This document shows, piece by piece, positions 1 through 50,768 of a stretch of 55,412 nt of DNA. The notes beneath the pieces were generated by a model that did no database searches, was not told the DNA's origin, and saw only the letters and a list, made by a program, of their open reading frames with translations. The translations under genes and the position numbers were made by a program. This stretch comes from Vulcanimicrobiota bacterium (GTDB taxonomy: Bacteria > Vulcanimicrobiota > Xenobia > Xenobiales > JADMJV01): contig JBFWNU010000006.1 in NCBI GenBank assembly GCA_050250895.1, positions 1 to 55,412 of the forward strand, given 5' to 3'. Every line of letters begins with the position of its first letter. Positions within the stretch are counted from its first letter, which is position 1.

Positions 1-467
1 TTCCCCCATCCCTTCTCGGGCGCCAATGTCGTCCCCACCGACAACTCCGACTGGGCCGCTCCTTATCCCGAACTGAGCTGTCGCTCTGTTCGGGATAAGG
101 AGCGGCCCTGCGGGCCGAGAGGGAGCTCTCGCCGCGCTCGCGAGAAGGGAGCGAACTGAGCTGTCGCTCAGTTCGGGATAAGGAGCGGCCCTGCGGGCCG
201 AGAGGGGAGCTCTCGCTGCGCTCGAGGGAAGGGAGCGAACTGAGCTGTCGCTCAGTTCGGGATAAGGAGCGGCCCTGCGGGCCGAGAGGGGAGCTCTCGC
301 TGCGCTCGCGAGAAGGGAGCGAACTGAGCTGTCGCTCAGTTCGGGAAGGCTCCTAGCGGCGTCAGCCGCTCTTCTTGTCGGCCGCAAGGCCGAAATCTCC
401 GCGCGCAGCGAACGGCTCCTTCTCCCGCCGACGCAGTCGGCGCTCCCCGCCGGCCGCAAGGCCGAAG
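1..467. repeat. Hairpin-chain repeat region containing ~3.3 tandem copies of an 83-84 bp unit
   Basis: Unit CGAACTGAGC-TGTC-GCTCAGTTCG...CGGCCC-TGC-GGGCCG...GAGAAGGGAG starts at 69, 152, 236 and 320. Further mini-palindromes follow (AGCGGC-GTCA-GCCGCT; CGGCC-GCAA-GGCCG twice) up to the stop codon of the next gene. Confidence 0.9.
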
Positions 468-851
468 TTAGTTCAGTCGAATCGGGGTGGCTCGCAAGCC
501 GTCAAAGAGGATGCCGCCCGAGAGATTCCAGTTCTGGTCGACCAGCAGGCTGGCGCGATAGCCGATCGAGCACAGGCCGTCGGGTTTGCCTTCGAAGACC
601 ACACACACGGTGTCGTGGTCGACCGGGCGCACTTCGCGAAAGGTGAGCGACTCGTCGCAGCGCAACTCGCGCCGCAGGCGCTTGAGTTGGCGGCGGATTT
701 CTTCGGATTGCTCGAAGGGAAGGCTGGCCGGGTCGTGGCGATACAGGCACAGAAGGCGGAGAAGCTCGTTGCGTTGGGGTACCTGGGGTTGCCAATGGAC
801 GGGGTGAATCGGCTCGCTTTGTGGCTTTGGCCTGTCGCCGTCTCGTGGCAT
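468..851 (-). CDS. Hypothetical protein (127 aa)
   Basis: ATG preceded by GAGGAAGGGGAG (RBS-like) and a sigma70-like promoter; protein-like composition; no family recognised. Confidence 0.7.
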   Translation of the reverse strand: MPRDGDRPKPQSEPIHPVHWQPQVPQRNELLRLLCLYRHDPASLPFEQSEEIRRQLKRLRRELRCDESLTFREVRPVDHDTVCVVFEGKPDGLCSIGYRASLLVDQNWNLSGGILFDGLRATPIRLN

Positions 852-15623: not shown

Positions 15624-17315
15624 ATGGCAAACCTCACCGCTTCCGGTCTTCGCAACCGGAGTCGAGTCGAGCTCATGGAGCTCGCCAAGGACATGGGTCT
15701 CAAAGGCCTGCAGAAGCTGCGCAAGGACGATATGATCGCCAAGATTCTTGAGGAGCAGAACGGAGCGCCCGCCGCTGAGCCGTCCGAGCCGGCGGAGGAA
15801 GAAGAGCCCCAGACCGAGCCTGAGGCCGAGCCGGAAGAAGAGGATGCCGGTGAACCGAGCCGCAGTCGCTCGCGCCGCCGCAGCCGCGGCCGTGGACTTG
15901 ACCGTGATCGCGACGAGCGCGACGAGCGCGAGGAGCGCGACGAGCGCGAGGAGAGCGAGGACGACGAGCCGGTGGCGGAAGCCGAGGCCGAGGATGAAGA
16001 CGACGAAGAGGAGGAAGCTCAAGAGCGCTCCCGTTCCCGTCGCCGCTCCCGCCGCCGAGGTCGTGATCGTGACCGCGACCGCGACCGCGACGACCAGAAA
16101 GAGACTCACGACGACCGCGATCAGGACGACGATGAGGGCGACGACGAGCAAGACTCCGAGCCTGAGCGCGCCCCGCGCGAGAAGCTGGGCCTGCTTTATG
16201 CCAGCGGAGTCCTCGAGATTCTGCCCGAAGGCTACGGCTTCTTGCGCGGACGCAGCTACCTTCCCAGTCCCTCAGACATCTACGTGTCGATGTCACAGGT
16301 GCGCCGTTTCGGCCTGCGTATGGGTGACATGGTACTGGGCCAGGTGCGTCCTCCCAAGAGCGGCGAGAAGTACTACGGGTTGCTCAAAGTGGCTTCGGTC
16401 AACGGAACCGATCCCGAGGCCGCCCGCCGCCGTCCTCACTTCGAGCAGTTGACGCCCATCTTCCCCAACGAGCGCTACACTCTCGAGCACGCCGAAACCA
16501 ACGATTTCTCACGGCGTATCATCGACCTGTTCGCGCCCATCGGCAAAGGGCAGCGCGGCCTGCTGGTGGCGCCCCCCAAGGCCGGTAAGACGATTCTCCT
16601 CAAGAAGATCGCCAACGGCATCGCCGAGAACTATCCCGAGGTGACCCTCATGGCCCTGCTCGTCGACGAGCGGCCCGAAGAGGTGACCGACATGGAGCGT
16701 TCCATCCACGGCGAAGTCATCGCCTCGACCTTCGACGAGCCCCCCGAGCAGCACGCTCACGTCAGCGAACTGGTGCTGGCCAAAGCCATGCGCATGGTCG
16801 AGATGGGCAAAGATGTGGTCATCCTGCTCGACTCGCTCACCCGCATGGGTCGCGCCTACAATAACATCACACCGCCCTCGGGCCGCACCCTGTCGGGTGG
16901 TCTTGATACGGCCGCCCTGCGTATTCCCAAACGCTTCTTCGGAGCCGCTCGCAACATCGAGAACGGCGGGAGCCTCACCATCATCGCTACCGCTCTCATC
17001 GAGACGGGCTCGAAGATGGACGAGGTCATCTTCGAGGAGTTCAAGGGAACTGGCAACATGGAACTTGACCTCTCGCGTCGCCTGGCCGAAAAGCGCGTCT
17101 TCCCGGCCATGGACCTCAAGAAGTCGGGCACTCGCCACGAAGAGCTTTTGCTCACCGAAGAAGAGCTGCAGAAGATCGTGCTCATGCGGCGCGCGCTCAC
17201 TCTGTTGGGCGAGGGTCAAGATCCCACCGAGGCCGTGCTCGAGCGGATGCGGCGTACCACGAGCAACGCTCAGTTCTTGATGACTCTCGGCAAAGAAACG
17301 ACCCACGCCCGTTAG
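15624..17315 (+). CDS. rho: Transcription termination factor Rho with a low-complexity N-terminal insertion
   Basis: [54 protein letters not shown]; AAGGAG RBS. Confidence 0.98.
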
Positions 17316-21096: not shown

Positions 21097-21816
21097 GTGA
21101 ACGCTGAAGACGAAGCCAGAGCCAGACTCGAGGTCGCACAACTCTATGTAGAGATGGGCCAATTGCCCAAGGCGGCCCGCTACTATCTGGCCGCGGCTGA
21201 AATCTACCGAGACGCAGGTCTGGCCCACAAGGCTCGCGAGCTGTTGCTCAAAGTCATGGAATTCGAGCCCGGCAACGTCCAGGCTCAAGAGATGATCGGG
21301 TCGCTGGCCGGCACCCCCGGCGTCGGCGGCGCCCCCAGCGCGCCCGCCCGCCCGGCCGCCGCTCCCGCTGCCCAGACACCGGCCGCAGTGACCAGTGGCG
21401 GCGGAGCCGGCTCTGGGGCCGTGACTTCGCCGACACCATGTCTCTTCCTTCGCAAAGACCAGCAGGCGGCCGTGATGAGTCAGATCACCCAGGCTCCAGA
21501 CCCGGCCGCTTTCCCGTTCCAACCTCTTCCCCGAGTAGACGCCAGAGCCATGGCCAAGCGGCAAGAGGAGCGGCGCCAAGCCGAAGAAGCCATGCGCGTC
21601 AAAGACCGCACTCGTGTCGAGTCAGCCTTCGGCGGCGGGCCGGGCGGCCTCACGGCCGGTGGCGGCGGGTTGCTAGCCCAGGCCAAGCGGTCGGGCCAGG
21701 GCCGTCGCAAGGGCGACAGCACGGAAGACGAGGCTCCCAAGCGCGGCCCTCGGGGCGTCCGCAGCGGGAACACCGACCTGGCCGACGCCATCCGCCGTAA
21801 GCTCCAGGGGGGCTAG
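21097..21816 (+). CDS. Hypothetical protein with an N-terminal TPR-like domain and low-complexity linker
   Basis: AQLYVEMGQLPKAARYY...ARELLLKVMEFEPGN. Confidence 0.75.
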   Translation: MNAEDEARARLEVAQLYVEMGQLPKAARYYLAAAEIYRDAGLAHKARELLLKVMEFEPGNVQAQEMIGSLAGTPGVGGAPSAPARPAAAPAAQTPAAVTSGGGAGSGAVTSPTPCLFLRKDQQAAVMSQITQAPDPAAFPFQPLPRVDARAMAKRQEERRQAEEAMRVKDRTRVESAFGGGPGGLTAGGGGLLAQAKRSGQGRRKGDSTEDEAPKRGPRGVRSGNTDLADAIRRKLQGG

Positions 21817-21831
21817 ACCCGCCTGAAGGGC

Positions 21832-22153
21832 GGCGCTTTCGATAAAACCGCAAAGGCGCAAATGCGCCGAGAGGGACCTGGATCTCGCAGGTGAGCGCTC
21901 GAATTTGAGAAAACCGCGGAGATACGCGGTGGGCGCGGGGAGGGTCGCTTACCTGGAAGGTTGGCGCTTTCGATAAAACCGCAAAGGCGCAAAGGCGCCG
22001 AGAGGGACCTGGATCTCGCAGGTGAGCGCTCGAATTTGAGAAAACCGCGGAGATACGCGGTGGGCGCGGGGAGGGTCGCTTACCTGGAAGGTTGGCGCTT
22101 TCGATAGAACCGCAAAGGCGCAAAGGCGCCGAGAGGGACATGGATCTCGAAGG
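21832..22153 (+). repeat. 131-bp tandem repeat array, left block (~2.5 copies)
   Basis: Units starting GGCGCTTTCGATA(A/G)AACCGCAAAGGCGC at 21832, 21963 and 22094. Confidence 0.95.
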
Positions 22154-22312
22154 TTGAGCTCGCTTGTGTAATTTTTGGATCGGGCGGCTGGAACTGGGAC
22201 GGGAGCGCCTCTTCGAGCAAGCCGCAGGCGCACGGTGATCTCGGTGTTCAGATTCGCTTACCCGCTCAGGTGGAGGTCGAAGGTGCTCTAGCAAGCCCTG
22301 AGGAGCGAAAGT

Positions 22313-22600
22313 ATGGACTTTCTAGAATTGATCCAGGACTTAGAAGCCGAGTGGGATACAGGCTTTTTCGCCAAACTGCGCGTCAACGGTTTTGACCTGG
22401 ATGGATTTAAGCGCGTAGAGTTGCTCCTATTGAAGCTAAGTCATGAGACAGAAAGCTACCCACAGAGGCTCGTCGCGTTGACCTGGTTCATTCCTTTGTT
22501 CATGAGTTGGCAGGAAGCGCCAAATTTGGAGGCTCAGGAGTACAGGAATTACTGCAATCGTCTTGAGAAACTGGTGATGGAAGGTCTGGGGATGCCGTGA
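22313..22600 (+). CDS. Small orphan protein (95 aa) inside the repeat array; immunity-protein-like
   Basis: GAGGAG RBS, visibly lower GC; GFFAKLR..GFD, WFIPLFMSWQ, terminal LGMP. The immunity assignment is inference. Confidence 0.75.
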   Translation: MDFLELIQDLEAEWDTGFFAKLRVNGFDLDGFKRVELLLLKLSHETESYPQRLVALTWFIPLFMSWQEAPNLEAQEYRNYCNRLEKLVMEGLGMP

Positions 22601-22614
22601 CGCCGAGCCGCGAC

Positions 22615-23010
22615 GGCGCCGAGAGGGACATGGGCCTCGAAGGGCTCGAGTTGAGAAAACCGCGGAGATACGCGGTGGGCGCGGGGAGGGTCGCTTACCT
22701 GGAAGGTTGGCGCTTTCGATAAAACCGCAAAGGCGCAAAGGCGCCGAGAGGGACGCGGATCTCGCAGGTGAGCGCTCGAATTTGAGAAAACCGCGGAGAT
22801 ACGCGGTGGGCGCGGGGAGGGTCGCTTACCTGGAAGGTTGGCGCTTTCGATAAAACCGCAAAGGCGCAAAGGCGCCGAGAGGGACCTGGATCTCGCAGGT
22901 GAGCGCTCGAATTTGAGAAAACCGCGGAGATACGCGGTGGGCGCGGGGAGGGTCGCTTACCTGGAAGGTTGGCGCTTTCGATAAAACCGCAAAGGCGCCG
23001 AGACGCAGAG
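22615..23010 (+). repeat. 131-bp tandem repeat array, right block (~3 copies)
   Basis: Resumes mid-unit at 22615; unit starts at 22709, 22840 and 22971. Confidence 0.95.
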
Positions 23011-23352
23011 GGCGCAGTGCCTGAGAAATTAACCGCGGAGATCAGGAAGGCACGGAGAGGGTTGTGGGGGGCGTGGAGTGAGCGTCCTGGTGAATTTTAT
23101 GGGTTAGGATTTTACCCACTTCGAATGGGGTGCTCAAAACGGCGGTGGCTGCCCGATCCCCGCGTTAAAGACCCAGCAGGCGCACACGTTCAATGTGAGC
23201 GGTGCCTGAAGCGCGTCGGTCGTCCCGGCGCGTGGCGGAGGTCCCGGCCACCTCCTCCGTGGCCTCTGTGACCCACGAGCATCGACCGCCCAGTCGCCCC
23301 TCGGCCTTGACCACCGAGTGCGACTACGAGGGGTAAGCCCTCGATTGGCGTT

Positions 23353-41837: not shown

Positions 41838-43370
41838 CTAGGGTCTGGCCACCGCCCTGGCCTGGGCGAAGATGGCTCGGGGCCCAGAACCCTCCATCCT
41901 GGCCCGTCCATTGGCGGCCAGGTGCTGGAGGATATGGAAGATGGTCTCGGTCTGGTCGACCCGGCCCATCCGGTCGGCCAGATCGCTGGCCGTCATGGCC
42001 TCACCCAGGCTGGTCTCGACGGCCTTCTGCAGTTCGAGCACGTCGGCCGCGGCCTTCTTGCCGGCCTCGACCCCGGGCTGGTGGTAGGCGTTGATGTCGA
42101 CCAGTTCAGCGTACAGCCCCACGGCCCGCTCGTAGAGGGCGATCAATCCCCCGACCGTGAAGGCGTCGACCCGGGGCACGGTGAGCGTGATCGAGCTGCG
42201 TCCGTTCTCGGAGAGGGCCTGGCGGGTGCCCTGCCAGAACCCCGAAAGGTAGTCGCCCGAGGTCACTCCCTCGGCCACCTCGACCGGGCGGCCGCCGTCT
42301 TCGAGCACCACGATGAAGGTGGCAAAGAAGTTGTTGAGGCCGTCCCGTAGCTGTTGCACATAGGCGTGCTGGTCGGTGCTGCCTTTGTTGCCATAGACGG
42401 CGATGCCCTGATGGACCTCCTTGCCTCGGCGGTCGAGCGCCTTGCCCAGCGACTCCATCACCAGTTGCTGCAGGTAGCGGCTAAACAGCTCGAGACTATC
42501 TTTGTAAGGCAAGATCACCATGTCCTTGGCGCCTTTACCATTGCCGGCGGCGTGCCAGGCGGCCGCCAGCAAAGCGGCCGGATTCTCACGCCAACTCTGG
42601 CGGCGGGTGAGATTGTCCATCACCCTGGCCCCCTCCAGCAGGGCGTCGCAGTCGACCCCGGCCAGCCCACAGGGAACCAGTCCCACGGCCGACATCACCG
42701 AAGTGCGTCCCCCTACCCAATCCCACATGGGAAAGCGGGCCAACCAGCCTTCGGCCTCGGCCATTTGGTCGAGCTTGCTGCCCAGACCGGTCACGGCCAC
42801 GGCTTGCTTGGCGAAGCTGAGTCCGGCGGCCTCGACGGTTTTACGGGCTACCAGCATGCCGTTGAAGGTCTCGGGTGTGCCGCCCGACTTAGAGATGACC
42901 ACCACCAGGGTTTTGGCCAGGTCCAGCCCCTTGAGGGTGCGCTCGAAGCCGGCCGGATCGGTGTTGTCGAAAAAGTGCAAGTCGAGACCCTGTCCGGTCA
43001 ACGCCTGGTAGATGAACTGGGGACCCAGGGCCGAGCCGCCGATGCCGATGGAGAGCACGTGTCGAAACTGGCCCCCGCTCTTGATTCTGGCCACGAAGGT
43101 CTTGATGTTGGCCGCCGTCTCGCGGATCTCGGCCGTGAGTTCGGGCTCGGGAGCCAGCTCAGGGAAGCGCAACCAGTAGTGCCCGACCATCCGCTGCTCG
43201 TCCGGATTGGCCACGGCCCCGGCTTCAAGCGCCTCCATCGCCGCCAGCGCGCCGGCCATCGGCTCATCGAACCGGGTTAAGTCGGCGAGATCGCTGCGCG
43301 AGAGGTCGAGGGTCAATCCCGCTTCGGGATAGGCGAAGTAGAAGTCTTGAAAACGTTGCCAGGTGGTCAT
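41838..43370 (-). CDS. pgi: Glucose-6-phosphate isomerase
   Basis: [52 protein letters not shown]. Confidence 0.97.
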
Positions 43371-43421
43371 GGGGCTGGCTTTCGTGTCCCCTCGGCCGTT
43401 CGCCTCCAGGGCGCGCTCGGC

Positions 43422-43776
43422 AGAAGGGAGCCGCTGCGCGGAGAAAGGAGCAGTGGCTGCGCCACTGAGACGGGAGCGCTAACTTCGCTTGCGCTCGTTA
43501 GCGGGAGAGGGGCGAGGTTCGCTTTGGCTCACCTCGAGATTTTAAGGTACACGACGCTCCGCGTCGTAACACGGGCGCGGCAAGCCGCGAAGTCCGACCC
43601 CCCGGGCCGAAGGCCTCGAAGGTTTGCGGCCGCAGGCCGCCTATCCATCCCTCGAAGCGAGCGACAGCGAGTTTCGCTCCCCCCTCGGAGCTCTGCTCCG
43701 CTCCCCTCTCCGGCCAAAGGCCGGCTCCTTTCTCGGCCACATCGTGGCCGCTTCGCTCTCGCGAGCGTAGCGAGCG
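43422..43776 (-). repeat. Hairpin-chain element, inverted copy
   Basis: Reverse complement of 48279..48638 and of ~49281..49640. Confidence 0.92.
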
Positions 43777-43777
43777 C

Positions 43778-46700
43778 CTACTGCCGGATGTCGAGCTGGA
43801 AGTCGTTGATGGTGACGGTTTGCTCGTCCATTTCGAGGCTGCCGCCGGCCTGGCGGCTAGCCAGGAAGTTGTTCCAGGCCGTCTCGACGTTGGGAGAGAG
43901 GACATACTCGTGGGCCAGTTGGGTGACGGCCTTGCCCAGGTCGGGCAGGTTTAGGTTGTAGAGTCGGCCGAGCAATACCAGGCCGTCTCCGTTGGGAATT
44001 CCGCTCAGGGTCTTGAGGCCTTTGAGCAAGTCGGGATTGGGATCTTTGGCGATGCGCGCCACCGATTCGGCGGCCGTCTTGCCACCGTCATCGCGATAGA
44101 CCGTGCCGTCTGAGTCTTTCACCTCGAGAGCCTTGAGCCAGAATCCGTCTTTCTCGTTGCTGCCGTCACTGGTGAAGTGAAAGCGCAGGCGGACCTGGCC
44201 GACTTGCTCGGGCAGGTTGAGGGTGGTCGGCCCGCTGCTGGTGCCGGTGAACTCTTGGAGATTGTTCCAGGTCTGACCGTCGCTCGACCAGGCCAGGGCC
44301 ACCTTGTCATACCCCTGCTCGAGATCATAGTCGAGGTCGAGGCTCACGGTGGCGGCTTTGCCCCGCAGCCCGAAGGGCGGGGTGATCAAGCTCTTGGATT
44401 GGTTGGACTGATAAGGACCATAGGGGCTCTCGCTCCAACCGTGGCTGGTGCGGGTCCAGCCGTCGCTGTGCCAGCCCGCTTCCGGGGCTGACTTCAAGAG
44501 GGCCAGGATAGCCTCGGCGGTGGCTGGTTCGATGCTCATTTCGCCGGGCTCGGCCACGCCCAGGGCCTTGAGTTCTTCCGCCACCAGACGACCTGACAGG
44601 CGGGCTCCCACACCGGGGCCGGGAGCGAGTCCATCGGCGACGGCCCGGGCCCGGGCCGCACCGAAGTTGGTGGCCGTCAGCATGACCGTGCGAGCGAAGT
44701 CGCCAAAGTCGGGATGCTCGCGGTGAGGGTGCAGCACCGAGAAGACCTGCATGGCGGCATGGACGTTGCCTAGAGCCTGGGCGAGTTCATAGATGGCTTC
44801 GCACCCTTCCAGAGCCTGCTCCCGGTCGCCCGCAAACAGGGCTTTGATCGTATCGAGTTCGATTCGACGCTCTTCGGGAACGTCGGTCATCAGAGTTTGC
44901 TCACCGTCGCGCACCCGAAAATTGCGCATGGCGAATCCGTCCATGGCGTTGGAGGCGTCGGTGACTTCGCGCAAGCGCAACCGCAGGGGACCGCCTGCGA
45001 AGGGCTGGAGAGGAACCGAGACAGCGGTCCAGGCCTCGAGGGGGCCGGTGAATGCCTTCAGTTCGTGCCACTGGCCATCGCCCCGGCTGGCTTCTAGCAA
45101 CACCTTGTCATAGTTTTGCTCGAGCTGGTGGCGAGCCTCGAATTCGACCACCGGGGCCGCTGCCCCGGCCAGGTTCAGGGGATGCGTAGTCAGCGACTGA
45201 TTGGCGTTCAAAGCATAATCGCGACCGGGCAAACTGTCGAGCCAGACCGGGCCCCGGCGGCGCCATTCGCCTTCGGCGGTCCACAGGGACAAGCCCTGGG
45301 CGAGTTTGGTCAGGGCCGGTTCGTGGTCGAGTTGGAGACGGGTCAGATTGTCGGTCAACTCGACCAGATCGTCTAGCCGCGGGGCCTGAGAGGTGCCTTT
45401 GAGCAATTCCTGAGCGAGGTCCCAACTCCGCATGGCCCGCTCGACGTTTTGTTCGACATCTCCTTCGAGCACTCGGGTGGCCAGCCGTTGGGTGGGTTCG
45501 ACTCCCAGCTTTCCGATCATCGGCGCCAGGGCTTGGGTGGGTTGCGATTGCAGCGACGGCCAGAGCTTGAGGGCGGTCGCCGCACTGCCGATTGCCTCAG
45601 CCAGCCCAGCTAAAGCGGGCACCTGGGCCGGCGTTTGGCCGGCAAACTCGTGCAGCCCCTCGAGTGTCAGGCGACGGCCTTCGGCTCCCGCGTCGAATAG
45701 GACCTCCGGTTCGCGTTCGGGAGCGTAGTTGCGCCGGCCTTCGAGCTTGAGGTCCTTGAGAAAGAATCCCTCACCGTCGTTGGAGGCATCGGAGGTGAGG
45801 TGGAAGCGAATCCAGACCCGTCCGCCTTCAAAAGGAGTCAGGTCGTAGTGCTGGTCGCTCCAGCCGGAGTCTCCGGTGTAGCTGGCCAGGGTGGTAAACG
45901 TATGACCGTCGCTGGACGCCTGCAGGTCGACCTTGTCATAGCCCTTCTCGAGCTGATGGCGAGAGGTAAACGACAACCGGGTTCCGGCCGCGTGGGTGAG
46001 GTCGATGGGCTCGAGCGTAAGCGAGTCGTTGCGGTTCATTCCGTAACCGCCGTTGGGATTGGTGCACCATTGGCCGGGCTCGTTCTGGCCCCACACGCCG
46101 CCGCAATCAAACGGCGAGCGCACGGCCAGCTCGACCAACCGTCCGAAGCTCTGAGGTTCGACGCCCTGGGATTTCAGCTGGTCATACAGGCCAAGAGCGT
46201 GCTCTAGCCCGTTGCGACTTAGCTCGGAGGCGGCCGAGAAGAGAGCAATCTTGTCGGTCACCGCGCCCTCCTTTTCGAGCAAAGCCCGGGCCGGTCGCAT
46301 GCCCAGGGCAGACTCGAGTTGACGAGCCGCCTCCAGCTGGTCAGAACCTTCCAGGGCCAGCCCTACCAACAGCGCCGATTGCTGGGGCTGGTCGAGGCGG
46401 GCCAATCCTTCCAGGCGAGATTTTAGCAGCTCGCTCGGGGCATCGCCGTCGAGCAAATCGGCCAACACTCGGCCAGCCGTGTTCTCGGCTTCGAAAAGGT
46501 CCTCGGCCGGTCCGCCGTAGGCCGGGGTAGCCAGCAGTTTGACCTCGCTCAAGCGGCTCGCCGGGCCGTCGTTGCTGGCGTCTGAGGTCAGTCGAAAGCG
46601 TACTTCGGCGGCCTGGCCGTCGAAGGCACTCAGAGAATACTCGTGTTTTCCGCTGGTGGTTCCGGTGAAAGCCTCCAACGGCTGCCACGCGCCGGCCGGC

Positions 46701-48178
46701 TTGCGGACCTCGACATGCAGTTGGTCATAGCCCTTCTCGAGTTGGGTGGCCAGCTCAAACGACAGCCGGGCGCCCCGGTGGTGAGACAGGTCGACCCGCC
46801 GGGTCAGCGATTGGTTGGCGTTGTTGGGATAGTTGCCTGCGGCCTCAGCGAACACTCCGGGACTGGTCTCCAGCCAGCTGCCCTCGGCCTGCCAGCCCGA
46901 ACCGAGGTTGGTCTTGACCAGCCCATCGAGAAGTGCCAGGCTCAGACCCGTCTGCTGATAACGGGCCGCGCGCGCCGCCAGCACGGCAGGCTTGTCGGTG
47001 GCCAGTCGGGCGAGCGACTCGACCGTTTTGGCGTCGAGAGGCAGGCGGTCCCGGGTGGCCGTCAGGCAGCCGTCCAGTTGGTCGGGAAAGGCCTTGACCA
47101 GGGCCAGATGACCCTCCAGCTTTTCGTTGGGCAGCTCTTCGAGCTGACGGTGCAGGGCGACCACTTGCTCGGGCGAGACCGGGGCCGCCAGGCTAAAGTT
47201 GACCAACGACCTGTCCAGATCAGGGCTGGCAGCTACCTGGCCCACCAGCTCAGCCGGGTTCTCGCAGCCTCGTTGCCGGAGTCCGATGGTGGCCTTGAGC
47301 TGTCGCTCGAGGTCGCCGCCAAGGTCGAGCGCATTCCAGTCCTGGTTGGCCGTCTGCGGCGTGGCCTCGGCGAGCTGGTCGAAGCGGCGGGCCCGCTCGA
47401 GCAACTGGCTGGCATTGGCGTCAAAGGCCTGGGCTGGCTCATAGTTCCCGAGCGCGGCCTGGCGATAGTAGACGGGCACGGCCTGGCCCTGACCGGCCTG
47501 GCTGTACGCCTCGAGCAAGGCCTGAGGCTCAATCTTTTCCTGCCGGAGTTTGAGCAGTTCGGCGGCCTGGTCGGGGTGGGCGAGTTGGCTGGTGACCCCT
47601 TCGATACTGGCCAGAAAGGCGGCCTGATCGGGCGTGCTCAGACGGCCCAGGTCGGTCTCGACCGCTTGACCTTGTTGCAACTGGCGGTAGGCTGCCAGGG
47701 CCCCACCTTCTCCCAGGTGAATCTCGCCCGCTTTCAAATAGCTGCCCAGCGGGTCGGGCTGAAATTCCAGCGCGTGCAGAACAGTCAGGCCAGTCACACC
47801 CTCGAGGGGTAGCCAGGCGTGCTTGCCCACTTTGACCTGCAGGCTGGGTTCGTTCTTGACGGCCAGCCGGGCCGCTTTGGCCGGGTCGGCCGGCTTCCAA
47901 TCCTTGCGCCAGAAATCCCAGCCTCGGCCCTGATAGCGAAAGCTGACTTTATCGGCCAGCGCCTGGGTCTGTCGGGTGGCCTCGAGCACCGCCGGTCCTG
48001 GTCCGAAAAGCCCGCCAAAGAAGGCTCCAACCGCGCCCCACCACGAGGTTTTCGGGCTCGGGCTCGGCCTCTGGTCCGAGACCTCGACCTGGTCGTTTCT
48101 CTCCGGCGCCGGCGCAGCCACGCGCGGCACCGCCGGGGGGCGCCGGGCAAACGAGTGGCTGATCGGACCGATCTGCAT
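43778..48178 (-). CDS. 1466-aa protein with four repeated beta-sandwich domains (MAM / immune inhibitor A-like)
   Basis: Four copies of Y..N...SL...LE.(G/N)YD....W..L..FTG...R...(T)SD.SN..G separated by helical regions. Confidence 0.88.
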   Translation of the reverse strand: MQIGPISHSFARRPPAVPRVAAPAPERNDQVEVSDQRPSPSPKTSWWGAVGAFFGGLFGPGPAVLEATRQTQALADKVSFRYQGRGWDFWRKDWKPADPAKAARLAVKNEPSLQVKVGKHAWLPLEGVTGLTVLHALEFQPDPLGSYLKAGEIHLGEGGALAAYRQLQQGQAVETDLGRLSTPDQAAFLASIEGVTSQLAHPDQAAELLKLRQEKIEPQALLEAYSQAGQGQAVPVYYRQAALGNYEPAQAFDANASQLLERARRFDQLAEATPQTANQDWNALDLGGDLERQLKATIGLRQRGCENPAELVGQVAASPDLDRSLVNFSLAAPVSPEQVVALHRQLEELPNEKLEGHLALVKAFPDQLDGCLTATRDRLPLDAKTVESLARLATDKPAVLAARAARYQQTGLSLALLDGLVKTNLGSGWQAEGSWLETSPGVFAEAAGNYPNNANQSLTRRVDLSHHRGARLSFELATQLEKGYDQLHVEVRKPAGAWQPLEAFTGTTSGKHEYSLSAFDGQAAEVRFRLTSDASNDGPASRLSEVKLLATPAYGGPAEDLFEAENTAGRVLADLLDGDAPSELLKSRLEGLARLDQPQQSALLVGLALEGSDQLEAARQLESALGMRPARALLEKEGAVTDKIALFSAASELSRNGLEHALGLYDQLKSQGVEPQSFGRLVELAVRSPFDCGGVWGQNEPGQWCTNPNGGYGMNRNDSLTLEPIDLTHAAGTRLSFTSRHQLEKGYDKVDLQASSDGHTFTTLASYTGDSGWSDQHYDLTPFEGGRVWIRFHLTSDASNDGEGFFLKDLKLEGRRNYAPEREPEVLFDAGAEGRRLTLEGLHEFAGQTPAQVPALAGLAEAIGSAATALKLWPSLQSQPTQALAPMIGKLGVEPTQRLATRVLEGDVEQNVERAMRSWDLAQELLKGTSQAPRLDDLVELTDNLTRLQLDHEPALTKLAQGLSLWTAEGEWRRRGPVWLDSLPGRDYALNANQSLTTHPLNLAGAAAPVVEFEARHQLEQNYDKVLLEASRGDGQWHELKAFTGPLEAWTAVSVPLQPFAGGPLRLRLREVTDASNAMDGFAMRNFRVRDGEQTLMTDVPEERRIELDTIKALFAGDREQALEGCEAIYELAQALGNVHAAMQVFSVLHPHREHPDFGDFARTVMLTATNFGAARARAVADGLAPGPGVGARLSGRLVAEELKALGVAEPGEMSIEPATAEAILALLKSAPEAGWHSDGWTRTSHGWSESPYGPYQSNQSKSLITPPFGLRGKAATVSLDLDYDLEQGYDKVALAWSSDGQTWNNLQEFTGTSSGPTTLNLPEQVGQVRLRFHFTSDGSNEKDGFWLKALEVKDSDGTVYRDDGGKTAAESVARIAKDPNPDLLKGLKTLSGIPNGDGLVLLGRLYNLNLPDLGKAVTQLAHEYVLSPNVETAWNNFLASRQAGGSLEMDEQTVTINDFQLDIRQ

Positions 48179-48220
48179 ATCCCCAGCCTATCGCCAGACC
48201 CTGAAAAATCGGTGAAGCGC

Positions 48221-48660
48221 GGCGCTCGCTGTGCTCGCGCGACGGGAGCGGCCACGTTGTGGCCGAGAAGGGAGCCGACGCTCGCTGTGCTCGCGAGAAG
48301 GGAGCGGCCACGATGTGGCCGAGAAGGGAGCCGGCCTTTGGCCGGAGAGGGGAGCGGAGCAGAGCTCCGAGGAGGGAGCGAAACTCGCTGTCGCTCGTTT
48401 CGGGTGGTCAGATAGGCGGCCTGCGGCCGCAACCCTTCGATGGCCTTCGGCCAGAGCCGGGCCGAATTTTGCGGCTTGCCGCACCAGTGTTACGACGCGA
48501 AGCGTCGTGTACCTCAAAATCTCGAGGTGAGCCAAAGCGAACCTCGCCCCTTTTCCCGCTAACGAGCGCAAGCGAAGTTAGCGCTCCCATCTCAGCGGCG
48601 CAGCCGCTGCTCCCACCTCCGCGTAGCGGCTCCCTTCTCGCCGGCTACGCCGGCGCCGCT
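48221..48660 (+). repeat. Hairpin-chain element, with its first ~57-bp module duplicated
   Basis: Chain of ~15-bp palindromes joined by GAGAAGGGAG / CTCCCTTCTC linkers. Confidence 0.92.
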
Positions 48661-48709
48661 TGGACATTCGTTCGACGGGAGGGGGTTTGGAGGCGGCGAA
48701 GATGAGTCG

Positions 48710-49069
48710 ATGCATTCTCAACCTTATCAAAAACTGGTCACCTGGCAGCGAGCCATGGACCTTGTGCCTAAAATCTATAAACTAACCAACGACATCCCCC
48801 CACACGAGCAGTTTGGCCTCATCAGCCAGATTCAGCGCGCTAGCGTTTTGATCGCGGCCAACATCGCCGAGGGTCAGACGCGCGAGTCGCCGCGAGCGTT
48901 TGCCTATCATCTCAGCCTCGCCCGCGGTAAGCTGGCGCAGGTCGAGACCCTGCTTCAGATCGCCCTCAAGCTCCACTACATTCGCCCCGCCCAGGTGGAT
49001 GCTTTGAAGGGCAATCTGGCCGACCTGCGCCGCCTGCTCGCTGGGCTGGTTCGAAAGGTCGAGGCGTGA
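48710..49069 (+). CDS. Four-helix-bundle protein (23S rRNA IVP / bAvd-like family)
   Basis: L.TWQRAMDL...IY.LT...P..E.FGL.SQI.RA.V.I.ANIAEG...F...L..ARG...ET.L.IA..L.Y. Confidence 0.95.
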   Translation: MHSQPYQKLVTWQRAMDLVPKIYKLTNDIPPHEQFGLISQIQRASVLIAANIAEGQTRESPRAFAYHLSLARGKLAQVETLLQIALKLHYIRPAQVDALKGNLADLRRLLAGLVRKVEA

Positions 49070-49787
49070 TGCTCGCTGTGCTCGCGAGAAGGGAGCCGAC
49101 GCTCGCTTTGCTCGCGAGAAGAGAGCGGCCACGTTGTGGCCGAGAAAGGAGCCGGCCTTGGGCCGGAGAGGGGAGCGGAGCAGAGCTCCGAGGAGGGAGC
49201 GAAACTCGCTGTCGCTCGTTTCGAGGGATGGATAGGCGGCCTTAGGCCGCAACCCTTGGATGGCCTTCGGCCAGAGCCGGCGCTCGCTATGCTCGCGAGA
49301 AGGGAGCGGCCACGTTGTGGCCGAGAAAGGAGCCGGCCTTGGGCCGGAGAGGGGAGCGGAGCAGAGCTCCGAGGAGGGAGCGAAACTCGCTGTCGCTCGT
49401 TTCGAGGGTAAGATAGGCGGCCTGCGGCCGCAACCCTTGGATGGCCTTCGGCCCGGGGGGTCGGACTTCGCGGCTTGCCGCGCCCGAATTACGACGCGAA
49501 GCGTCGTGTACCTTAAGAACTCGAGGTGAGCCAAAGCGAACCTCGCTCCTTCCTCGCTAACGAGCGCAAGCGAAGTTAGCGCTCCCATCTCAGCGGCGCA
49601 GCCGCTGCTCCCACCTCCGCGTAGCGGCTCCCTTCTCGCCGGCGTAGCCGGCGCCGCTCCCATCTCAGCGGCGCAGCCGCTGCTCCCACCTCCGCGTAGC
49701 GGCTCCCTTCTCGCCGGCGTAGCCGGCGCCGCTCCCTTCTCGCAAGCGAAGCGACGCGCTCCCTTCTCGCCGGCTACGCCGGCGCCG
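49070..49787 (+). repeat. Expanded hairpin-chain element with internal 181-bp and 75-bp tandem duplications
   Basis: Duplicated blocks start at 49100/49281 and 49581/49656; the element fills the whole gap between two convergent stop codons. Confidence 0.92.
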
Positions 49788-50768
49788 CTAGCCGAACAGC
49801 TTGCTGACCGAAAGGTTGAAATAGTTGCGCCGAATGGCTTCGCCTAAAAGGGGAGCGACCGAGAGCACCGTGACTTTGCCGCGTTGGGCCGAGGAGGCCA
49901 CTGGAATGGTGTCGGTGACGATCACTTCTTCCAGGGGCGAGGCCTCGATCAGATCTACGGCGTTGCCGGCGAAGAGAGCGTGGGTGGCGGCCGCGAAGGC
50001 CCGCTTGGCGCCTCGCTCCATGAGCATCTCGACGCCGCGCACCAGGGTGTTGCCGGTCGAGATGATATCGTCGACGATCAACACCGTCTTGCCTTCGATT
50101 TCACCCACCAGGTCGATCACGTCGATGGCGTCGGGGCGGGGGCGGCGTTTGAAGATGATGGCCAGGCCTGCGCCCAGACGCTCGGCGAACATGCGGGCGC
50201 GGTTCACGCCTCCGGCGTCGGGCGAGACCACGACCAGGTCTTCCTTGGGAAAGTTCTTGCGGCGGAAATACTCGACCACGATTGGCATGGCCATCAGGTT
50301 GTCCACCGGAATGTCGAAGAAGCCCTGAATGGCAGCCGCGTGCAGGTCGACCGTGACCACGCGGTCGGCCCCGGCGGTAGTGATCAGGTTGGCTACCAGT
50401 TTGGCCGTGATGGGTTCGCGACCGGCCGTCTTCTTTTCCTGGCGGGCGTAGCCATAGTAGGGGATGACGGCGGTGATGGTCTTGGCCGAAGAGCGGCTCA
50501 GGGCGTCGCACATAATGAGCAATTCCATCAGTGTCTCGTTGACGTTGCCGCAGGTCGGCTGCACCACGAAGACCTCGGCCCCGCGCACGTTCTCTTCGAT
50601 CTGGACCCGGATCTCGCCGTTGGTGAAACGGGACACCAGCGCGTCACCGAGAGAGACCTCCAGATACTCCGAAATCGCCTGGGCCAGCCTGGGGTTGGCG
50701 TTGCCGGTGAAGACAACGATATTCTCACCCTCGAGGGCTGGCTGCTCCCTCTCTTCCAGAACTAACAT
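49788..50768 (-). CDS. prs: Ribose-phosphate pyrophosphokinase
   Basis: FTNGE, PYYGYARQEKK, DLH, VVSPDAGG, IVDDIISTGNT. Start is 50768 or 50777. Confidence 0.97.
   Translation of the reverse strand: MLVLEEREQPALEGENIVVFTGNANPRLAQAISEYLEVSLGDALVSRFTNGEIRVQIEENVRGAEVFVVQPTCGNVNETLMELLIMCDALSRSSAKTITAVIPYYGYARQEKKTAGREPITAKLVANLITTAGADRVVTVDLHAAAIQGFFDIPVDNLMAMPIVVEYFRRKNFPKEDLVVVSPDAGGVNRARMFAERLGAGLAIIFKRRPRPDAIDVIDLVGEIEGKTVLIVDDIISTGNTLVRGVEMLMERGAKRAFAAATHALFAGNAVDLIEASPLEEVIVTDTIPVASSAQRGKVTVLSVAPLLGEAIRRNYFNLSVSKLFG

Follow-up and report, generated by a model that had tools for sequence, protein, structure and literature searches.

We examined a 55,412-nt window of a Vulcanimicrobiota bacterium (assembly GCA_050250895.1, contig JBFWNU010000006.1, positions 1 to 55,412 of the forward strand), in which the interval 48221..49787 carries chains of small hairpins around a gene of the PF05635 family, known from intervening sequences (IVS) of 23S rRNA. 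In the reading that we favor, with a probability of about 0.55, this interval holds copies of a lineage-specific dispersed mosaic repeat that supplies the arrays of a selfish cassette of the IVS-like kind. The location of a PF05635 gene within the arrays, together with the polarity of arrays that start flush with stop codons, argues for an IVS-type selfish cassette rather than for a repetitive extragenic palindrome (REP) system driven by a REP-associated tyrosine transposase (RAYT); our verdict is that the element is a hairpin-bearing, IVS-like selfish repeat with likeness to REP and to bacterial interspersed mosaic elements (BIME), and not an ordinary REP.

The PF05635 gene and its inverted flanks

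The gene at 48710..49069 on the plus strand encodes a four-helix-bundle protein of 119 aa, which matches the Pfam profile PF05635 (23S_rRNA_IVP; protein of 23S rRNA intervening sequences) at 3.2e-29 (101.7 bits; cut-off 33.8). Among solved structures, XCC0516 (2gsc; 3.4e-20) is the nearest, and the bAvd profile reached 1.3e-05 and 26 bits, below its 40-bit cut-off. TALE repeat proteins were matched weakly by phmmer over the whole sequence (E from 4e-07 to 8e-04), and no single stretch passed by itself; these matches are taken as a compositional or helical-repeat artefact.

A complete element runs from a left array, in which each mini-hairpin is joined to a GAGARGGGAGC linker, through a core of ~150 nt to a right array of the complementary type. 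All three PF05635 genes in the genome have a right-type array on their upstream side and a left-type array on their downstream side; with right-array linkers ahead of the open reading frame (ORF) and left-array linkers behind it, pairing within the transcript could enclose the ORF in a stem. The 140-nt flanks of the three genes are inverted complements with scores of 15.0, 23.0, and 16.0, as compared to 7.8–8.6 for shuffles (8.6 ± 1.3 for the gene at 48710) and 7.5–9.5 for direct repeats. The leader of the gene (48661..48709, plus strand) holds a 20-nt motif (48661–48680) that precedes all three PF05635 genes as well as one unrelated gene (other sites near 174585 of contig 8, near 653424 of contig 2, and, for the unrelated gene, near 2716982 of contig 1), and that is followed by a small TTCGAC...GTCGAA stem; the motif may be a leader or promoter element. 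A promoter reading of the conserved leader was set aside, as no convincing −10 element was seen (by eye only).

Within the family, one of 16 genomes (i.e., the genome studied here) carries PF05635, and the protein query matched 6 of the 401 genomes of the phylum sample. In other genomes of this sample, five of six PF05635 loci have short tandem repeats upstream and the reverse complement of these repeats downstream (the sixth has downstream repeats only), and the flank repeats often start at the stop codon of the upstream gene; the repeats of these related cassettes are of unrelated sequence (e.g., GTGAAAC, GCGTGAC, and AGTTCTC). With a four-protein alignment as the metagenome query (a nine-protein alignment was too divergent), we fetched 80 metagenomic PF05635 loci and scored the 72 that have 100 nt or more on each side. 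In 50 of these 72 loci, the inverted flank score was at least 14, as compared to 10 for direct repeats, and z exceeded 4 in 56; median scores were 19 for inverted repeats, 7 for direct repeats, and 7.5 for shuffles. The 50 loci suggest that inverted tandem repeats may be general for free-standing PF05635 genes.

Elsewhere in the order, PF05635 genes occur only in G018, which has two of them, one flanked by GGGAGAT-type heptamers that resemble the linker of the genome studied here. GGGAGAT arrays are dispersed in G018 (488 matches with up to two mismatches, 221 with up to one); at up to one mismatch, there is one match each in G016 and G035, and there are none in the other 37 genomes of the order, ours included. 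Of six G018 loci inspected, four have an array that sits flush against the end of an ORF, and four have inverted pairs of purine and pyrimidine arrays. In G018 (e.g., L237 and L239), GGGAGAT arrays are often paired with CTCCCTA arrays, flush past the ends of ORFs, and the resulting hairpins have A.A/T.T mismatches every 7 nt.

Units, hairpins, and genome-wide spread

Each unit consists of a GC-rich mini-hairpin of 13–20 nt and an 11-nt purine linker, for which 702 linkers give the consensus GAGARGGGAGC. The exact 11-nt linker occurs 96 times (64 + 32) in the 9.5-Mb genome, against ~7 expected and 0–9 for eight scrambles, and spacings from one GGAGC to the next peak at 23, 24, 26, and 27 nt (146–209 cases, as compared to 33–62 for a control word). 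Chaining of GGAGC-type words yielded 180 arrays with about 550–625 modules (625 by chaining), 402 of them distinct; by crude gene calls, 149 of these arrays lie between genes, which gives 130 loci and 21.7 kb, and 30 lie inside called genes, where they are probably chance matches or coding repeats. The arrays occupy 0.23% of the genome, and their loci differ widely in unit number (up to 15) and content; among the perfect tandem runs are a series of 13 nearly identical units of 26 nt around 519811 of contig 1 and alternating pairs around 3173584. Four of 34 contig ends (the end of contig 2 and the starts of contigs 4, 5, and 6) are no more than 400 nt from an array (~0.45 expected), and one N-gap (contig 1, 519998–520007) falls inside an array, with two further N-gaps inside a core-repeat locus; arrays thus break the assembly, and their true number and length are underestimated.

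A three-linker pattern matched 236 times in this genome, as compared to once for the reversed control, and had no match in 38 of 39 other genomes of the order (a single match in the remaining one); DNA of the element was found in none of 40 relatives, the same-genus genome included. A linker-pattern scan of species genomes gave, among the matches listed, single chance matches that fell mostly in unrelated GC-rich genomes, none with the module design, and is uninformative on distribution. Across the whole window, no Rfam family reached its gathering score, and none matched 43300–49900 at E ≤ 1.

The repeat copies of the interval were delimited by reading 47900–50100 and with a generic hairpin finder and repeat families. 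The initial annotation had described an element of ~360–440 bp under 48221..49787; the interval is more than a single element and holds a full copy (48221–48672), the PF05635 gene, a truncated copy (49070–49273), and a copy with a multiplied right array (49274–49787), all on the plus strand. The left array of the first copy (48221..48399; families D4 and D6) has six units, the first of which is of the GCTCGC-TGT-GCTCGC type with tandem C.T/T.C mismatches that read as G.A/A.G on the opposite strand. The core (48400..48559) contains hairpins at 48416–48430, 48441–48453, 48470–48483, and 48492–48508, the last of which belongs to a stretch around ACGACGC-GAA-GCGTCGT and an A-rich tract that hardly varies across the genome, as well as a variable hairpin at ~48523–48546 that covaries. 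In the right array (48560..48660; families D5, D7, and D9), hairpins with the plus-strand loops GCA, GTA, TAC, and GCAA are separated by the complementary linker GCTCCCNTCTC. The truncated copy, composed of a left array and the start of a core, begins at the first base past the TGA stop of the PF05635 gene and is 96% identical to 49274–49453 (family D2); the following copy is 92% identical to the first, has right-array units at 49550, 49625, and ~49700–49787, and ends flush with the stop codon of prs (49788–49790, minus strand).

Two more sites of the window carry the repeat. An inverted full copy (43400..43778, minus strand; 90% identity to the first copy) has its left array directly past the stop of a gene with InhA-like and MAM domains, and its far end lies ~30 nt before the start of pgi. 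At the very start of the contig, arrays of another subfamily (38..470; families D3 and D4) show an 84-nt period of three units; behind them come right-type units adjoining the stop of a minus-strand gene (468–851).

All six hairpins named in the initial annotation were found with the hairpin finder within one base of their reported positions; the stems carry one further closing base pair and thus start one base earlier. They are, on the plus strand, CGGCCAC-GAT-GTGGCCG (48305–48321), CCGGCC-TTT-GGCCGG (48331–48345), GCGGCC-TGC-GGCCGC (48416–48430), ACGACGC-GAA-GCGTCGT (48492–48508), CAGCGGC-GCA-GCCGCTG (48593–48609), and CGCCGGC-TAC-GCCGGCG (48639–48655). The alignment and the hairpin finder also bear out that loops differ between copies (GAT/GTT/GAA, TTT/TTG/TTC, GAA/GGA, TGC/TTA, and TAC/GTA) and that one stem changes in a compensatory manner (AGCGGC..GCCGCT to AGTGGC..GCCACT, 43451–43467); a second compensatory change, from GAGGT..ACCTC to GAAGT..ACTTC, was identified in a copy on contig 7, and one stem change (column 127 of alignment A3, where T has become C in the copy at 43405) is without compensation. 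Over four full copies, mean column identity is 89%, with changes mainly in loops, linkers, and spacers, and five of 121 consensus pairs are altered on both sides, three of these being long-range pairs between linkers.

The tandem G.A motif, likewise noticed from the letters alone, was recovered and extends to the core hairpin, where 62–63 distinct copies show G.A in 49 and A.G in 38, alternating with G-C (13) and A-T (14). The core occurs as 69 copies (63 distinct) at 43 loci; ~35 nt, among them the ACGACGC-GAA-GCGTCGT hairpin, hardly vary, and the variable hairpin has three stem pairs with two to three Watson-Crick types each that are 95–100% paired, although independent events are few, with roughly five or six stem haplotypes. 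Given this compensated variation, an absence of covariation, which would have spoken against a structured element, was not what we found.

Folding points the same way for the full copy of 452 nt, which reaches −253.5 kcal/mol (z −7.3) on the plus strand and −238.3 kcal/mol (z −5.1) on the minus strand, values matched by none of 100 shuffles. In these predicted folds, left linkers pair with right linkers, as had been proposed for the element as a whole, and the mini-hairpins protrude. Module hairpins average −6.9 kcal/mol (260 distinct), as compared to −4.1 kcal/mol in shuffles, and their Watson-Crick symmetry is 0.56, as compared to 0.31 ± 0.01. On the linker strand, the loops of the 427 of 553 units with a perfect stem of at least 3 bp are most often TGC (135), TTC (94), and TTT (30); read on the complementary strand, TGC and TTC are GCA and GAA. 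The folding energies of the two strands (RNA, L −6.90 and R −6.57 kcal/mol; DNA, −4.38 and −4.39 kcal/mol) differ too little to decide between a sense and an antisense role.

Taken together, the initial proposal of a possibly undescribed structured element stands in that the element is structured, modular, shows real covariation, and has no Rfam match, and in that its architecture is REP/BIME-like and the DNA is dispersed and probably mobile; it does not stand as to a flanking HUH/RAYT transposase or reverse transcriptase, which had been named as a check and for which neither PF01797 nor PF00078 gave a gene in the genome. A discrete trans-acting noncoding RNA, also considered there, fits poorly with ~130 heterogeneous, tandemly amplified, and strain-variable arrays.

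Two other repeats of the window may be recorded here. Six copies of a 300-nt repeat (D1; 131-nt spacing, two blocks, 68–97% identity) lie at 21694–23132, are partly covered by gene calls, and are unrelated to the hairpin arrays. At 15906–15968, within a predicted gene (15624–17315), there is a 9-nt tandem repeat, seen as five overlapping copies of 27 nt, which is probably a coding repeat of acidic and basic residues.

Placement at gene ends and the prs–pgi insertion

Of the 144 intergenic arrays that could be scored, 59 begin no more than 60 nt past a co-oriented stop codon, and in these the mRNA-sense strand is the one with the linkers; 7 lie near a facing start, 4 abut a stop in antisense, and none lies within 60 nt ahead of a downstream start codon. 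At the junctions, the first hairpin or linker follows the stop codon by 0–3 nt, whereas the gap on the 3′ side of the arrays has a median of 363 nt. The three stop-adjacent cases inside the window follow genes with Pfam support (i.e., the InhA/MAM-domain gene, prs, and the PF05635 gene). TAG is the stop codon of 35 of the 59 array-adjacent genes, as compared to 39% genome-wide (p = 0.002), which suggests either a target preference or a stop supplied by the element. Convergent genes surround 35 of the 99 loci that have a scored gene on both sides, as compared to 17.5% of all intergenic gaps. A terminator scan of the region gave 7 hits, not above the 6.1 ± 2.6 of shuffles. A polarity of the core was considered and dropped; the 3′ end of a gene faces one side of the core in 29 of 43 loci and the other side in 27 of 43.

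One insertion can be compared directly with relatives. In four relatives, prs and pgi are separated by 9, 9, ~25, and ~375 nt (the native spacer of the same-genus relative is AGGAGCGCC), whereas here the two genes are 6.4 kb apart, starting right after the prs stop. By this comparison and Pfam annotation, the insertion (43371..49787) contains three repeat elements, the PF05635 gene, and a gene on the minus strand (43778–48178) for a protein of 1466 aa with InhA-like, MAM, and F5/8 type C domains. The last gene is bracketed by two inverted repeat copies and in this resembles the cargo of a composite element.

At another site, the orthologue of an array-bearing gene (contig 1, 2737176–2737859) is followed by a canonical terminator (A-tract, hairpin, and T-tract) in two relatives, G002 (L248) and G004 (L249), where this genome has a 750-nt array; two other relatives have unrelated sequence. 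Contigs of a ~92%-identical metagenomic relative, from four metagenome runs, hold the PF05635 gene with a variant of the upstream element, where 33 nt take the place of 208 nt. These four runs gave no clean empty site, and joints across the region are repeat artefacts.

Weighing of the explanations and comparison with known systems

If the arrays belong to an IVS-like selfish cassette, they would be co-transcribed as the 3′ untranslated region (UTR) of the preceding gene and would fold, through pairing of left with right linkers, into a long interrupted rod that could act as a 3′-end barrier or as a substrate of RNase III. The family would have spread to ~130 stop-flush sites after the split from the same-genus relative, with local tandem amplification, and hairpin pairing would have been kept because spreading, or toleration by the host, depends on folding. 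Avd, a relative of the four-helix-bundle protein, binds nucleic acid; the protein would be the likeliest factor encoded by the element, and the mover would be neither a RAYT nor a reverse transcriptase recognizable by Pfam.

REP sequences in E. coli have been reported as stabilizers of mRNA 3′ ends or as terminators, and the arrays could accordingly be a 3′-UTR device useful to the host, kept by selection on RNA, at which the PF05635 genes merely landed. The flush start past stops on the sense strand, the enrichment between convergent genes, the canonical terminator of G002 and G004 at an orthologous array site, and the reverse complement of the core, which reads as a hairpin with a T-run, all fit this explanation. 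We nevertheless regard it as unlikely, since neither the same-genus genome nor the rest of the order has the arrays, and since the arrays vary widely in unit number and content across loci, take a variant form in the ~92%-identical relative, show no excess of terminators over shuffles, and have up to 15 units, far beyond what a terminator needs. We consider it similarly improbable that the arrays are passive, hairpin-prone minisatellites shaped by slippage and gene conversion, with no dedicated mobility or function, and that the PF05635 cassette simply prefers such sites. The perfect tandem runs and the contig ends and N-gaps at arrays are what minisatellites would produce, and templated repair can preserve the pairing of palindromes without selection. 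Slippage, however, cannot seed ~130 loci with the same linker and a nearly invariant core in one lineage, and it leaves unexplained both the contrast between the flush 5′ side and the distant 3′ side and the location of all three PF05635 genes within arrays that cover 0.23% of the genome.

Two further explanations appear highly unlikely. A REP/BIME system, or one of REP doublets forming hairpins (REPIN), moved by a RAYT (an HUH Y1 transposase) acting on single-stranded DNA hairpins would account for the extragenic imperfect palindromes, hundreds in number, that make up mosaic arrays with conserved linkers, and for GNA-type loops and tandem G.A pairs on one strand, features that stabilize DNA mini-hairpins. 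However, a six-frame search of the 99.6%-complete genome at E ≤ 0.001 gave no PF01797 match, although the family was found in 6 of 14 control genomes, and DNA folding energies are equal on both strands. The genome is also without a reverse transcriptase match (PF00078). The linkers might instead form a multivalent RNA platform, in which GGA or GGAG between hairpins titrates CsrA or 30S subunits; these words resemble Shine-Dalgarno and CsrA-binding motifs, and the sponge RNAs CsrB and RsmZ share the hairpin-spaced layout. The linker consensus, the native prs–pgi spacer of the same-genus relative, and the presence of a csrA gene in the genome agree with such a platform, but the lack of arrays just ahead of start codons does not, and the unrelated flank repeats of related cassettes indicate that GGA content is no trait of the family.

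Several observations weigh against the IVS-like cassette that we prefer. No mobility enzyme was found, and the polarity figures come from our own crude gene caller (8292 genes, 90% coding). The array patterns had been built on the same genomes that were then scored with them, so that genomes without a PF05635 gene may hold other, unseen arrays. Hairpin-plus-linker units occur in none of the 80 metagenomic loci, where repeats are of the heptamer type, and homology with heptamer flanks is consequently argued from position and linker likeness; the flank array of another genome (G066) matches only itself, so that genome-wide spread is no general companion of the PF05635 gene. The prs–pgi comparison, the only clean one with an empty site, shows no target-site duplication and defines no exact element end, and of three further attempts, two used queries from multi-paralog families and one lacked downstream synteny. 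GNA loops and tandem G.A pairs lie, in left arrays, on the strand antisense to the upstream gene, which sits badly with a role as sense RNA, and nearest-neighbor energies show almost no strand preference; the stablest hairpin chemistry is antisense to the adjacent gene, whereas the placement indicates the sense strand. Transcription, folding, and processing of the arrays, as well as the role of the protein, are all points that we infer from sequence.

For some 30 years, it has been an open question where rRNA IVS come from, how they move, and what their conserved ORF does. The genome studied here places the PF05635 family outside rRNA, in arrays spread within one lineage, with one datable insertion between prs and pgi; stop-flush placement offers a sharp, testable target, and the diverse hairpin stems serve as natural barcodes of lineages. 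As a broader and rather doubtful idea, PF05635 proteins could be the factor encoded by a widespread, unrecognized class of selfish elements, in which hairpins of inverted short tandem repeats insert flush past stops or in rRNA helices and bring along neither a transposase nor a reverse transcriptase; rRNA IVS, the heptamer arrays of G018, and the hairpin-chain family would be three faces of this class, and the hairpin-chain units would be derived forms that took over gene ends. PF05635 genes are described inside cas loci (e.g., between cmr3 and cmr2; PMC3936711) and among genes with a link to CRISPR (PMC10910872); as arrays of the present kind can mimic CRISPR arrays to repeat finders, they may account for the finds in cas loci. 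We found no statement in the literature of free-standing PF05635 genes flanked by stop-flush inverted tandem arrays, in a search that left subscription journals outside, so that absence is unproven.

Among known systems, miniature inverted-repeat transposable elements (MITE) have terminal inverted repeats and a target-site duplication; the halves of the present element are complementary only at the level of linkers, and no duplication could be seen at prs–pgi. Integron attC sites were also considered and set aside, as core sites are absent (by eye). The four-helix-bundle protein is small and basic, like Avd of diversity-generating retroelements, and belongs to the same superfamily, but its bAvd score is below the cut-off and the genome has no reverse transcriptase. 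REP, BIME, and REPIN share with the arrays the hundreds of extragenic imperfect palindromes, mosaic arrays, conserved linkers, and location at gene 3′ ends; here, by contrast, no RAYT is present, stems are diverse (402 distinct among 625 modules), and the linker is the conserved part. Palindromic units of BIME alternate in orientation between defined linkers; here, conserved linkers are present, and units keep one orientation in each half and flip only across the core.

Cyanobacterial short tandemly repeated repetitive (STRR) sequences, and the small dispersed repeats reported by Elhai et al. in 2008, are dispersed arrays of tandem heptamers. These, and the dispersed, paired tandem hepta- and octanucleotide sites of Geobacter metallireducens, read by their authors as regulator-binding (PMC2700814), resemble the present arrays in their short tandem units, many intergenic sites, frequent inverted pairs, and lack of a known mobilizing enzyme, and differ in that units here measure ~26 nt and hold an internal hairpin; the available portions of PMC2700814 and of papers citing Elhai et al. 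(2008) make no mention of a link to PF05635 or of stop-flush placement.

The closest comparison is with the 23S rRNA IVS of Leptospira, Coxiella, and other bacteria. The Coxiella IVS, termed selfish, has terminal inverted repeats that form a 28-bp stem and three tandem GACAGAT heptamers upstream of the S23p ORF, with an RNase III site at the first, and a hypothesis of 1993 is cited by which the IVS ORF encodes a mobility component (PMC4990558); PF05635 genes also occur in rRNA insertions of bacteria of the candidate phyla radiation (CPR) (PMC11270868). The present element differs in that it lies between protein genes (i.e., prs and the InhA/MAM-domain gene), flush past their stops, and not in a 23S rRNA helix (an Rfam search gave no rRNA match in the window), in that its flanks are chains of mini-hairpins and linkers rather than plain inverted repeats or heptamers, and in that ~130 array loci have no ORF. 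Both, however, enclose a PF05635 ORF between complementary flanks, carry short tandem repeats beside that ORF, and have a sporadic distribution, which suggests horizontal spread.

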